Below the pieces are notes generated by a model. The model was not told the DNA's origin and did no database searches. It was given only the letters and a program-made list of their open reading frames with translations. A stretch of DNA of 33,698 nucleotides from IMG/VR virus record IMGVR_UViG_3300007152_000001, positions 1 through 33,698 of that record. One strand, 5' to 3'. This document shows positions 1 to 33,698 of this stretch, in pieces. A program made the translations under genes and the position numbers. The DNA is from a virus. Every line of letters starts with the position of its first letter. Within the stretch, counting starts at the first letter, position 1.

Positions 1-99
1 CAGCATGACGTATATTTCACCGTCATCTAGTGCGTCCACCTCGGCAATGCCTGACTGCATACCGTTGAAATTGTCTTTGTCGTATACTAGGACGTGACA
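1..99. repeat. 99-bp terminal direct repeat, identical to 33600-33698 (circular-assembly overlap or terminal redundancy)
   Basis: Direct comparison: cagcatgacgtatatttcacc...gtatactaggacgtgaca occurs at both window ends. Confidence 0.95.
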
Positions 100-20190: not shown

Positions 20191-20498
20191 TATAACTTAT
20201 ATGCGACCCAAGCGTCCCTTGCAAACTGCATGAAAGGCGAATTTCTGTCTCTTTTGCCACAATCAAACTTCCTGAACTTGGCGTAAACATCAGCGACAAC
20301 TTCCAGCCTCTCTTCAAGCGTTGACCCATCACTCAACTTATTCTGCACCTCTTTTCTAAAAGCGACAGACTTTGAAATGTCGGTGTACTTGCAAACCAAA
20401 ACTTCGCCATGATAGTCGTGTGACTTCATGTGAGGCGGAAAATCTGCGTCAACATGCGACAGCACACTTCCATAATTATCCATCCCAACCATCTTCAT
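20190..20498 (-). CDS. Hypothetical protein (102 aa)
   Basis: The ATG at 20498 is in an ATGA overlap with the upstream stop. Confidence 0.55.
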   Translation of the reverse strand: MKMVGMDNYGSVLSHVDADFPPHMKSHDYHGEVLVCKYTDISKSVAFRKEVQNKLSDGSTLEERLEVVADVYAKFRKFDCGKRDRNSPFMQFARDAWVAYKL

Positions 20499-20737
20499 AG
20501 CGAATACTCCGCATAAGTTCCCTTTTTGCGGCAAGCCTTGCGCTTTGTAGTGATGTCGTAACCCTCTTTGCGCAGGCTGTGTATAATCGCACTCAATCGC
20601 AGTATAGAGTAGTTTTTAGTCGCCTCTAGCTGTGTGAGTGTCTTGCCACGCTCTAAGTGCATTAAAACTGCCTCTCGTTGCGTGTCGTAGTCTTTTTCGT
20701 AGCTTTTAAACCATCTTGAAATATAAATCACATTCAT
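20495..20737 (-). CDS. Small winged-helix DNA-binding protein (HTH_39-like)
   Basis: LTQLEATKNYSILRLSAIIHSLRKEGYDI pattern. Confidence 0.6.
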   Translation of the reverse strand: MNVIYISRWFKSYEKDYDTQREAVLMHLERGKTLTQLEATKNYSILRLSAIIHSLRKEGYDITTKRKACRKKGTYAEYSL

Positions 20738-21792: not shown

Positions 21793-21993
21793 TTACTCTT
21801 TTATTGTAGCACATTCTGCGCTTTTGGCAATCGACATCTTTACAAATTGCTTGTCAACTAAGTCGCCAATACTTTCCATTAAGTATGCGCAACACTCTGC
21901 CACTTCGCTATCGCATTCCATTTCATACCACTTCTTTTGCATAGCAACGTCATAGATAGCGTCTGACAGTTCTTGTTTAAGTTGTTCTTTCAT
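21793..21993 (-). CDS. Hypothetical acidic protein (66 aa from the ATG; a TTG at 21999 is also possible)
   Basis: Clean ORF co-oriented with its neighbours. Confidence 0.5.
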   Translation of the reverse strand: MKEQLKQELSDAIYDVAMQKKWYEMECDSEVAECCAYLMESIGDLVDKQFVKMSIAKSAECATIKE

Positions 21994-23232: not shown

Positions 23233-23645
23233 CGTTCTTCTTCCTTTTGTTTACTTAAATAGCCCCACACGTTAAAGATGTGCAGAATGCGAGGCTGTTT
23301 AAATAAGCTGGTCTATTCCCAGCAGTCAGCCAAACTGTGTCTTTACATGGAACTTTCTTTGGCATTCCCCATGTGTACTATTTGTGTCGCAGAGCCGTAG
23401 CTTTCCTGCAAGCGTTCTTCACGCCCCAAGCTTCTTTGCTTGTTCAACCGCCGTACAAAGCGAACCTCTTACTTAAAGAAGGGGGCAGGATTTCCCAAGC
23501 GCTATACCTTTCCTGCATGCCCTGCCAGCGTTGCTGACAACTCCGTGGTTGCCCACTGCCTGTTACCAAGCTAAACCTGTCACGTTCACAGGTTCACACC
23601 CCTTCTTTAAATATCCGCTGTTTAACCCCAACGGCAGGGCTGTTA
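23233..23645 (-). ncRNA. Candidate large structured noncoding RNA, family unknown; the strand is inferred
   Basis: No credible ORF across the stretch. Multiple long-range complementary segments, including a 12/12 helix and an interleaved 8-bp helix (see findings). Confidence 0.4.
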
Positions 23646-23816
23646 TTATTTAACTTCGTCTACACCGTAAACTCGGTCATTGGCTACACCGCCTGTCACG
23701 TTCTTAGACTGCTCAACGTGTAGGTATGTCTTAGCTTCGGGGTTGGCTTGACCTTGTTCAAAAGTCATTTGTCCAAAACCTAAACCTAATGCTACTGCCA
23801 AAATAAAACCTGTCAT
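23646..23816 (-). CDS. Small secreted or membrane protein (56 aa; possibly 66 aa if started at the leader ATG at 23846)
   Basis: AAGGAG RBS 8 nt before the ATG at 23816. Signal-peptide-like N-terminus MTGFILAVALGLGFG. Confidence 0.55.
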   Translation of the reverse strand: MTGFILAVALGLGFGQMTFEQGQANPEAKTYLHVEQSKNVTGGVANDRVYGVDEVK

Positions 23817-23835
23817 CTTTATATCTCCTTTATTG

Positions 23836-23881
23836 ATGTTGTTCATGGTTATGTTGTAACCCTTATTTAATGTACTGTCAA
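23836..23881 (-). promoter_or_regulatory. Early promoter cassette, copy C: TTGACA-17-TACAAC, then ATAACC-ATGAACAACATCAATAAAGG
   Basis: Shares a 17-nt element with the copies at 26096-26112 and 29649-29665. Confidence 0.55.
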
Positions 23882-25785: not shown

Positions 25786-26078
25786 TTAATAATCTCCCAT
25801 GTAAATGTTTTACCGTTGAACTTAACTGTTAGAATTCTTTCATCTTCTTCTTGGTCGTTAAACTCTGTGCGCAAAAATACCGCTTCTTCCCACTCTTCCG
25901 AACCTTGTGCGCCAACTTCATAAGCTGTGTTAGCCTTTGCCTTTTCAATAGCGTCTGCGATGTTTTCAATAAGTTCATCACCAACAGCATCGCTTTCGAC
26001 AAAGTATCCCAACTCTTTAGCATCGGGATAGCCATCAATTTGAGGGTGGAAATATACATCTTGTGGAATATTGCTCAT
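25782..26078 (-). CDS. Hypothetical acidic protein (98 aa); first gene behind promoter cassette A
   Basis: ORF whose stop overlaps the erf start (ATGA). Confidence 0.55.
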   Translation of the reverse strand: MSNIPQDVYFHPQIDGYPDAKELGYFVESDAVGDELIENIADAIEKAKANTAYEVGAQGSEEWEEAVFLRTEFNDQEEDERILTVKFNGKTFTWEIIK

Positions 26079-26082
26079 TTGC

Positions 26083-26141
26083 TTAACCTTTATTTATATT
26101 GTTCATGGTTATAATATAAACACGCTTGACCTAAATGTCAA
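26083..26141 (-). promoter_or_regulatory. Early promoter cassette, copy A: TTGACA-17-TATATT, then ATAACC, then mini-ORF ATG AAC AAT ATA AAT AAA GGT TAA
   Basis: Near-consensus sigma70 hexamers at 26136-26141 and 26113-26118. The conserved element lies at 26096-26112. Confidence 0.65.
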
Positions 26142-29463: not shown

Positions 29464-29631
29464 CTATCCAGCCCCCACAATCATTCCAACAATCATTAAC
29501 GCCACAAACGAGGCAGTCATTAAAAACGCAACGACTTGCTGTTTAAACCATGCTTGCTTGTAAAATGGCGTGCGTGTGCTGTGCAAGCGAATTGCACCTG
29601 TGCGTAAATCTTTGTTGTATTTATCTAGCAT
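29464..29631 (-). CDS. Small membrane protein (55 aa), below the ORF-track cutoff
   Basis: First ORF behind promoter cassette B. Product MLDKYNKDLRTGAIRLHSTRTPFYKQAWFKQQVVAFLMTASFVALMIVGMIVGAG. Confidence 0.4.
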   Translation of the reverse strand: MLDKYNKDLRTGAIRLHSTRTPFYKQAWFKQQVVAFLMTASFVALMIVGMIVGAG

Positions 29632-29635
29632 ATCT

Positions 29636-29694
29636 TCAACCTTTTTTAATATTGTTCATGGTTATAATATAAACTAACTAAATCAGCTTTGCAA
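29636..29694 (-). promoter_or_regulatory. Early promoter cassette, copy B: TTGCAA-17-TATATT, then ATAACC, then mini-ORF ATG AAC AAT ATT AAA AAA GGT TGA
   Basis: Hexamers at 29689-29694 and 29666-29671. The conserved element lies at 29649-29665. Confidence 0.6.
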
Positions 29695-33242: not shown

Positions 33243-33260
33243 ATTCCCGTTCGGGTTGAT

Positions 33261-33292
33261 AAAAAGCCCCTAGCATTGGCGTGCTAAAGGCT
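33261..33292 (-). terminator. Candidate terminator of the late/moron transcript, with a hairpin usable on both strands
   Basis: AGCC/GGCT and TAGCA/TGCTA stems (33265-33292). Followed by a five-T run on the minus strand, and by TATTT on the plus strand. Confidence 0.4.
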
Positions 33293-33539
33293 TATTTGGA
33301 AACTAAACTTTCTTACCCTTTGCCGAGTGTATTGGAGTACATCACGGCATGCTTAGTTAACTCACTTTTATTTCCAATTATTGTGTGACCCTGACAAGCT
33401 ACTAGACACTTCCGATGTCTTGTCAGAACCGTCACCCATAAGTAACGTAAGGACTAAAGCTAGAACCCTGTCTAGTGGTATCCTAACCAACCGCCGCCAA
33501 ACTTCTCCGTGTTAGCCACACTAAATAACAATACCACAA

Positions 33540-33698
33540 TCAGCAATCAAAGCAAGGATTAACCAACTCACGCTTGAAAGGCTTGTGCGTACCGTCTTCC
33601 AGCATGACGTATATTTCACCGTCATCTAGTGCGTCCACCTCGGCAATGCCTGACTGCATACCGTTGAAATTGTCTTTGTCGTATACTAGGACGTGACA
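33540..33698 (-). CDS. C-terminal part of the junction-spanning 65-aa gene (same gene as 1-138)
   Basis: TGA stop is the complement of 33540-33542. In frame with 1-138 once the 99-bp duplication is collapsed. Confidence 0.5.
   Translation of the reverse strand, partial: CHVLVYDKDNFNGMQSGIAEVDALDDGEIYVMLEDGTHKPFKRELVNPCFDC
33600..33698. repeat. Second copy of the 99-bp terminal repeat
   Basis: Identical to 1-99. Confidence 0.95.

Follow-up and report, generated by a model that had tools for sequence, protein, structure and literature searches.

The stretch of DNA analysed here, referred to as the window, comprises all 33,698 nucleotides (nt) of IMG/VR virus record IMGVR_UViG_3300007152_000001, a phage genome that carries on its minus strand three copies (A, B and C) of a short element made up of a sigma-70-type promoter and a conserved leader that begins with ATG. 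With a probability of roughly 55%, this element is a portable early promoter-leader cassette with an optional 5'-terminal AUG, maintained by selection and used as a joint for recombination. The initial annotation of this DNA had proposed that each leader encodes a conserved, leaderless mini open reading frame (ORF) of seven codons, but a conserved, translated heptapeptide MNNI(N/K)KG with a function of its own is not supported.

The presence of three minus-strand copies at the places originally described was confirmed by checking their coordinates (Table 1). The 26-nt core ATAACCATGAACAAYATHAAWAAAGG finds three matches in the window at up to three mismatches, against 0.00 expected from 100 dinucleotide shuffles, and a repeat finder independently returned the same three copies (family D2). 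In their alignment, the -35 and -10 elements and the segment from -6 to +20 are conserved and the 17-nt spacers are unrelated, which argues for selection on separate functional blocks and not for a recent duplication.

Relatives of this phage were identified by searches with proteins encoded beside the cassettes, and their contigs were then searched with a cassette profile. The ERF recombinase retrieved contigs L002, L003 and L004; the 130-amino acid (aa) nuclease-like protein encoded upstream of copy B retrieved L153, L154, L155, L156-L162, L163 and L164; and the DUF968 protein encoded upstream of copy A retrieved L165-L168, L169 and L170. The profile search yielded 14 distinct cassette copies, which represent nine haplotypes over positions -6 to +21. 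Three of them are found in each of the window, L165 and L169, two in L170, and one in each of L153, L154 and L163, so that 11 copies from six related metagenomic phage contigs are added to those of the window. Orthologs of copy B occur in L153, L154, L163, L165 and L169. The copies of L002, L003 and L166-L168 are identical to those of L165, and one related contig originates from a Malaspina marine virome. L004, whose ERF recombinase is 51% identical, holds no cassette at up to three mismatches. DNA scans with patterns of different strictness covered IMG/VR, JGI metagenomes and GTDB genomes. The strict core pattern found no match in IMG/VR, a promoter-only pattern found at least 119 generic promoters and no relatives in the same database, and a pattern with codons 3-5 left free gave 18 matches in JGI metagenomes and 11 in GTDB genomes, all of them attributable to chance.

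A promoter scan returned copy A as the top sigma-70 match of the early region (11/12) and gave 9/12 for copy B; copy C (TTGACA, 17 bp, TACAAC) reaches 10/12 and fails the scan rule, its -10 element being devoid of the final T. Sigma-70 promoters hold -35- and -10-like hexamers 16-18 bp apart, and in all 14 copies the spacer, although variable in sequence, is exactly 17 bp long and the -35 element starts with TTG (TTGACA, TTGCAA or TTGACT). The -10 element is TATATT, TATAAC, TACAAC, TACATT or TAATAT, and it is followed by the discriminator ATAACC, which appears as ATAAAC in three copies and as CTAACC in one. The original reading of a repeated sigma-70-type promoter is supported by these hexamers and their spacing, and its early timing is presumed. 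A weak 7-bp hairpin spans the -35 element of copy A (26143-26124); it has no equivalent in B or C, and it is absent from the orthologous copy of L002, whose spacer differs.

It had also been predicted that transcription starts at or next to the A of the ATG, and the geometry fits in the three window copies, where the ATG begins 7 nt after the -10 element. Among 104 distinct unrelated IMG/VR matches to TTGACA-17-TAYAWY-ATAACC, the seventh base after the -10 element is A in 87, which makes the A of the ATG a sensible predicted start; by analogy with these promoters, transcription of the cassette is predicted to begin at this A, 7 nt after the -10 element. The triplet that follows ATAACC in the same 104 matches is ATA in 49 and ATG in four, so ATAACC-AT(A) past a consensus -10 represents a widespread promoter context that is not specific to this phage. 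Many viral contigs without relation to it (IMG/VR loci L005-L123) contain TTGACA-17-TATAAT-ATAACC-ATA.

From the seventh base after the -10 element, the conserved transcribed part reads ATG AAY AAY ATN AAD AAA G. The motif AAAGG occupies +16 to +20 and is placed 8 nt ahead of the real start codon in each copy of the window, and the usual ribosome-binding site of this genome is AAGG(A/G) located 7-9 nt before the ATG. Since AAAGG matches this site in both sequence and spacing, the 3' third of the proposed mini-ORF is the Shine-Dalgarno (SD) sequence of the next gene. Over their first 60 nt, the transcripts show no folding, with minimum free energies between -2 and -5 kcal/mol and z-scores between -0.5 and +1.1. 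These unstructured transcript starts exclude an attenuator; together with the 4 nt that separate stop from start and the absence of any Rfam family throughout the window, they rule out an attenuator or a riboswitch. A lambda-type nut site within the cassette was likewise discarded, as no hairpin exists there.

The codon pattern on which the mini-ORF had been founded is real. In the window, the seven codons vary at four sites, all of them third positions and three of the four synonymous, and four random variable sites among the 18 positions after the ATG would all be third positions with a probability of 15/3060 = 0.005. This part of the coding signal becomes stronger with the 14 copies, which over +1 to +18 vary only at +3, +6, +9, +12 and +15; the probability of five variable sites falling in one register is 6/8568 = 0.0007. 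The variable sites located upstream, -6 and -2, are out of period, which indicates that the periodic constraint starts at the predicted +1. However, the changes are not synonymous only: codons 2 and 3 do change synonymously, but codon 1 suffers start loss, codon 4 changes from Ile to Met (ATC to ATG in copy C of L170), and codon 5 alternates between AAT, AAA and AAG, which encode Asn or Lys.

In addition to these replacements and to the SD role of AAAGG, the start codon and the frame themselves speak against a conserved translated peptide of seven codons. The B copies of L154 and L165, two contigs that come from different samples, precede the MLDKYNKDL gene as in the window and read ATAAAC-ATA-AACAATATTAAAAAAGG (ATAAAC ATA AAC AAT ATT AAA AAA GGT). 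This ATA is a natural start-codon knock-out in an otherwise intact cassette, and the other two copies of L165 keep the ATG. Depending on the copy, the frame opened by the ATG extends over 7, 28, 38, 65, 66, 88, 105 or 107 codons. Closed frames (A, B, L153, L163 and copy B of L169) stop 4 nt before the real start, and in copy C of L170 the frame that begins at the cassette ATG is 28 codons long and runs across the conserved MFGFILAV gene in a different register. The start, stop and length that a small-protein gene keeps in its homologs are therefore not kept here. Both the 4 nt that separate stop from start in A and B and the continuous frame of C had been described correctly. Frame compatibility was discarded as evidence of translation, because copy C of L170 breaks the rule and several cases depend on one another.

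Gene starts in the relatives point in the same direction. In L165/L002, no cassette is found immediately before the 56-aa gene of unit C, which carries an AAGGAG and an ATG of its own, and so MTGF... is a real start and no extension is needed. Copy A of L170 and copy A' of L002 share their first 30 nt and diverge directly after the second ATG, as expected where the second ATG is the gene start.

At larger distances, the same promoter is followed by leaders that lack the ATG. The orthologous promoter of L156, TTGACA-17-TACATT-TGTTAT-ATAAGAATTATAAATAAAAGG, shows second-position differences and one extra A; that of L155 is TTGACA-17-TATATT-ATATAC-ATAACAACAAACAAAAGG, and those of L004 and L164 are similar. 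All these leaders adjoin the same nuclease-like gene, on its downstream side, with 58-59% identity at the protein level. In the wider alignment of the cassette, variation is limited to third positions in the 14 near copies but not in the distant leaders (L156, L155, L004 and L164), whose missing ATG, second-position changes and 1-nt insertion or deletion speak against a mini-ORF; substitutions spread evenly over codon positions had been named beforehand as a pattern that would refute it.

The use of the cassette as a joint is suggested by the points at which homology ends. Nucleotide homology between the window and its relatives (blastn) stops at the 3' ends of the cassettes, at 26088, 26075, 29628 and 23828. 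A different gene A comes next at 26088 in the comparison with L165 and at 26075 in that with L169; at 29628 the same cassette is followed in L153 by a different 44-aa gene, and at 23828 an extra 88-codon gene is inserted in L165 exactly past the cassette. L163 carries, at the B position, the ATG-to-ATG part of copy A of the window (31/31 nt identical) beside a protein that is 63% identical. Judged from these sequence junctions, the cassette is a recombination joint for swaps of downstream genes between related phages.

According to the promoter-leader reading, the host sigma-70 RNA polymerase would use TTGACA/TTGCAA, the 17-bp spacer and the TATATT-like -10 element, and would start at the A located 7 nt past the latter. 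The first 20 nt would constitute an unstructured, A-rich leader, AUG AAY AAY AUN AAD AAA GG, whose last five bases, AAAGG (AAAGGAG in C), would act as SD sequence for the first gene of three successive early blocks. The +1 AUG would be confined to one narrow lineage, in which it can be lost. When present, this 5'-terminal AUG probably makes the mRNAs dual-mode, so that ribosomes are also captured at the end of the transcript, and in those copies of the relatives that have no AAAGG, it may be the real start codon of the gene. Such an optional, lineage-specific use of the 5' AUG is plausible from the copies compared.

Table 1. Coordinates of the cassettes, their first genes and other genes mentioned in the text (window positions).
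Feature	Position	Strand	Details
Cassette A	26076..26141	-	-35 TTGACA 26141-26136; 17-nt spacer; -10 TATATT 26118-26113; ATAACC 26112-26107
Cassette A, transcribed part	ATG 26106-26104	-	predicted +1 is the A of this ATG; followed by AAC AAT ATA AAT AAA GGT
Cassette A, 7-codon frame	26106-26083	-	stop TAA; then GCAA, then real ATG at 26078
Cassette A, SD sequence AAAGG	26091-26087	-	8 nt before the start of the 98-aa gene
Unit A, first gene, 98 aa	25782..26078	-	start ATGAGCAATATT resembles ATGAACAATATA of the cassette, 28 nt upstream
Cassette B	29629..29694	-	-35 TTGCAA 29694-29689; -10 TATATT 29671-29666; ATAACC 29665-29660
Cassette B, 7-codon frame	ATG 29659-29657	-	TGA ends at 29636; then AGAT, then real ATG at 29631
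Cassette B, SD sequence AAAGG	29644-29640	-	8 nt before the 55-aa gene (MLDKYNKDL...)
Unit B, first gene, 55 aa	29464..29631	-	C-terminal hydrophobic stretch
Cassette C	23814..23881	-	-35 TTGACA 23881-23876; -10 TACAAC 23858-23853; ATAACC 23852-23847
Cassette C, frame	ATG 23846-23844	-	shares the frame of the downstream gene and reaches its ATG at 23816
Cassette C, SD sequence AAAGGAG	23831-23825	-	before the 56-aa hydrophobic protein (MTGFILAV...)
Unit C, first gene, 56 aa	23646..23816	-	66 aa from the cassette ATG
Hfq-like protein, 69 aa	21564-21773	-	Pfam Hfq, 27.3 bits against a cut-off of 27
HTH_39 protein	20495-20737	-	early region; domain match
HAD_SAK_2 protein, 185 aa	26420-26977	-	E = 7e-24; just upstream of the DUF968 gene

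Several observations weigh against this reading. A purely RNA-level account does not predict that ATAACC, which precedes +1, should match the leader in its degree of conservation, and a plain leader does not predict the strict period-3 variation of the 14 copies and nine haplotypes (P = 0.0007). The G at +3 is held in 12 of the 14 copies, with +12 and +15 nearly free, which suggests some selection for the AUG. Moreover, those copies that show AAAGT or AAAGA in place of AAAGG (the A position of L165/L002, L169 and L170, and the C position of L165/L002) are all in frame with a long ORF, and gene callers begin the gene at the cassette ATG or upstream of it in the same frame; the leaderless start originally envisaged would fit these relatives. 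Finally, the N-terminus of gene A, MSNIPQDVYF, can be aligned with MNNIKKVDYM, the cassette-fused N-terminus of the ortholog in L002, and in some copies the AUG may accordingly be a true start codon. Within 26067-26106 of the minus strand, the real gene start ATGAGCAATATT at 26078 resembles a duplicate of ATGAACAATATA. The sequence hints that the cassette ORF may derive from the 5' end of gene A or recombine with it.

Alternatively, the cassette may encode a functional leaderless upstream ORF or an N-terminal tag, which is regarded as unlikely. In this case, 70S ribosomes would load on the 5' AUG and translate MNNI(N/K)K; in A and B they would terminate 4 nt before the start and re-initiate, with no need for binding of the 30S subunit to the SD sequence, and in the in-frame copies the cassette AUG would be the true start codon. 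The position of the AUG exactly at the predicted +1 agrees with this proposal, as does a period of three that begins at +1 and is not followed by -6 and -2, but the same AUG is ATA in L154 and in copy B of L165, where both cassette and gene are intact. Similarly, codons 2 and 3 admit synonymous changes only, but Ile is changed to Met and Asn to Lys at third positions of the following two. The 4-nt stop-restart arrangement is repeated in A, B, L153, L163 and copy B of L169, and where AAAGG is missing the cassette ATG shares the frame of the gene and is the start chosen by gene callers, but copy C of L170 reads across the real gene in another frame over 28 codons, the swap junction between copy A of L170 and copy A' of L002 falls right past the second ATG, and the 56-aa gene of L165 carries no extension. 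Distant relatives exhibit the same leader design without any ATG. In favour of translation, most of the Escherichia coli mRNAs tested that combine a 5' AUG with an SD-led gene gave some translation from the 5' AUG (PMC4965119). Antisense coding was also tried as the source of the period and rejected, because a plus-strand ORF (25851-26114) overlaps only copy A, and not B or C.

Strict period-3 conservation is not fully explained by coding, and an Hfq-type protein may bind the tract. The leader would then be a triplet-periodic RNA operator, quite unlikely in our judgement, in which six A-(A/U)-N triplets are read by the distal face of an Hfq-type protein, from the host or from the phage, and binding beside the SD sequence tunes or shuts off translation of the early block, with a logic comparable to that of T4 RegA. 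A triplet-reading RNA binder would explain why the third base is free even where the start codon has been lost: no triplet varies at position 1 or 2, position 3 is free regardless of the coding effect, and the A-R-N rule predicts precisely a free position 3, with the N base exposed. An AAN-like pattern, in which non-A bases recur every 3 nt, is likewise seen in the ATG-less leaders of the relatives, but the register of AAY AAY AA differs between leader families, and the conservation of ATAACC upstream of +1 is not covered by such a binder.

The window does encode an Hfq-like protein, which aligns to solved Hfq structures and whose gene comes with an A-rich leader and with a promoter-like site of its own (TTGCCA-16-TACAAT at 21830). 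Hfq-like genes are present in every cassette phage with enough sequence (the window, L165, L169 and L170) and in L004, whose leaders are ATG-less, but all these phages are relatives and the co-occurrence is not independent. The alignment of these proteins shows an invariant FL...LxNGxKLxG, and its conserved part F/YLxNGxKLxG is taken by us to be the distal face, with the YKH motif as the presumed proximal RNA-binding face. The latter has become RLN in the window, L169 and L165, is kept in L170, and is nearly kept (YKQ) in L004. With regard to the RNA, an A-rich triplet tract beside the ribosome-binding site is reminiscent of the Hfq distal-face (A-R-N)n/AAYAAYAA sites, and genomic SELEX (systematic evolution of ligands by exponential enrichment) has yielded the Hfq motifs AAYAAYAA and AYAATA (Lorenz et al. 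2010, PMC2887942). The cassette holds an exact AYAATA (ACAATA, in A and B types) and, as AAYAAYAU, seven of the eight positions of AAYAAYAA, a likeness of sequence only. However, the strict run of four A-R-N triplets is missing, because AAC AAU is followed by AUA, in which U is not a purine, before AAU AAA, leaving two plus two triplets around AUN. Runs of four are in fact common in this A-rich genome (66 in the window versus 41 expected), and the cassette is not among them. The Hfq link suggested at the outset stays speculative. In its most far-reaching form, which is very unlikely, the hexamer of the phage's own Hfq-like protein would bind the first 18 nt of the three early transcripts as six A-(A/U)-N triplets, one triplet per subunit, beside the SD sequence, and would thereby switch early-block translation off or on as a phage-encoded, Hfq-based translational operator.

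The least probable explanation among those weighed is a DNA-level element, in which -6 to +20 would be a repressor operator or an initial-transcribed sequence for promoter escape, and the period of three would be coincidental. Such a coincidence is unlikely given P = 0.0007, and a DNA-binding protein should not spare one base in three all along 18 bp. Conservation does span the start (ATAACC plus +1 to +20), like that of operators overlapping +1, and small winged-helix genes are located nearby (the 62-aa MarR/FeoC-like and HTH_39 genes), but the dyad TATTAT...ACAATA occurs in A and B types only. A dyad-symmetric operator was consequently ruled out as a general feature, since C-type copies have no dyad.

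As a promoter-leader cassette, the closest described case looks to be that of the E. coli 5'-uAUG mRNAs, here packaged in a repeated, mobile phage promoter module. In E. coli, and by prediction in the phage, an AUG at the 5' end opens a short ORF of varying length, and an SD-led gene lies downstream. In E. coli, most of the 5' AUGs tested bound 70S ribosomes and gave some translation, with variable effects on the downstream gene and no known function for the peptide (Beck, Fleming & Janssen 2016, PMC4965119). In contrast, the phage arrangement is a conserved cassette, three per genome and shared across a clade, its upstream ORF, which overlaps the SD sequence, is either fused to the gene or closed 4 nt short of it, and its transcription start is a predicted one. 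The leaderless cI gene of lambda, expressed from promoter PRM (PMC10491246), resembles the cassette in the predicted start at the A of an AUG without SD sequence, a likeness that may fit the AAAGG-less copies of L165, L169 and L170; however, cI is a single lysogeny gene, whereas each of the three window copies is provided with an SD sequence and a second start.

The modular behaviour of the cassette recalls the PeSL cassettes of T4-type phages, in which a promoter and a stem-loop take part in modular shuffling (Arbiol et al. 2010, PMC2839356). Like them, it is a strong, repeated, sigma-70-like and presumably early promoter situated at the boundaries of small variable genes, and a joint for shuffling. 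Unlike them, it has no conserved stem-loop terminator, its conserved part is the transcribed leader, and the phages that bear it are of about 34 kb and unrelated to T4. Mycobacterial leaderless short-ORF attenuators also have a short ORF as first cistron (bioRxiv 10.1101/834739; PMC4633059), but they depend on codon-specific stalling and downstream RNA structure, whereas the phage leader offers no structure, a gap of 4 nt and a start codon that is not conserved.

The genome is a circularly assembled phage of about 33.6 kb with all its long ORFs on the minus strand. An exact direct repeat of 99 nt (window 1-99 = 33600-33698) indicates a circular or terminally redundant complete genome. The presumed early and replication region runs from approximately 32.9 kb down to 20 kb, and structural genes come next. 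This region encodes a DnaB-type helicase, an ERF recombinase (Pfam), an SSB identified by gene position and by the Pfam label given to its ortholog in the relatives, the Hfq-like and HTH_39 proteins, and NinB-like, DUF968 and HAD_SAK_2 proteins, HAD_SAK_2 being the HAD domain of the "Swiss Army Knife" RNA-repair proteins. The gene for the 62-aa MarR/FeoC-like protein is directly upstream of copy C. The 55-aa protein of unit B belongs to no Pfam family, and its gene is kept 3' of the cassette in L154, L163, L165 and L169 and 3' of the ATG-less leaders in L156. Deposited phages include no nucleotide match to the window and no close relative, the helicase being at most 27% identical to that of any known phage. 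The nearest terminase (63% identical) is that of Dulem virus 31, whose early region is unrelated. The record of this virus (L171, PP511318.1; 35.8 kb) contains tail sheath, tail tube and tape measure proteins and has Microviridae in its taxonomy line; given these tail genes, it appears to be misclassified.

Two ORF-free stretches of the minus strand were also noted. The first one, 413 nt long (23233-23645), is located just 3' of the first gene of cassette C and folds to -143.6 kcal/mol, compared with -120 +/- 5 kcal/mol for shuffles (z = -4.5), with no Rfam match. Its core varies, but the two long helices that enclose it show no change in L169, L165 and L170, and the consensus fold shows compensatory changes in 19 of 81 predicted pairs. 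In L165-type phages, the counterpart of this stretch precedes a Phage_N_antitermin (PF26859) gene that is absent from the window. Either a structured leader or a non-coding RNA may be encoded there. The second stretch (33255-33545) is G-rich, lies in the non-coding gap of about 1 kb between late and early genes, has a fold z-score of -2.8, and has no credible Rfam match.

Regarding annotation, the 7-codon ORF should not be counted as a gene, and the N-termini that have been called from the cassette ATG in the relatives are to be taken as predicted only. If the promoter-leader reading is true, these phages would provide a clear non-T4 case of a promoter-leader cassette that is at once an expression unit and a joint for the exchange of early genes. 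If, in addition, the period of three reflects ribosome loading at the 5' AUG or an Hfq-type binder, the cassette would offer a small model of 5'-end-dependent translational control in phages.

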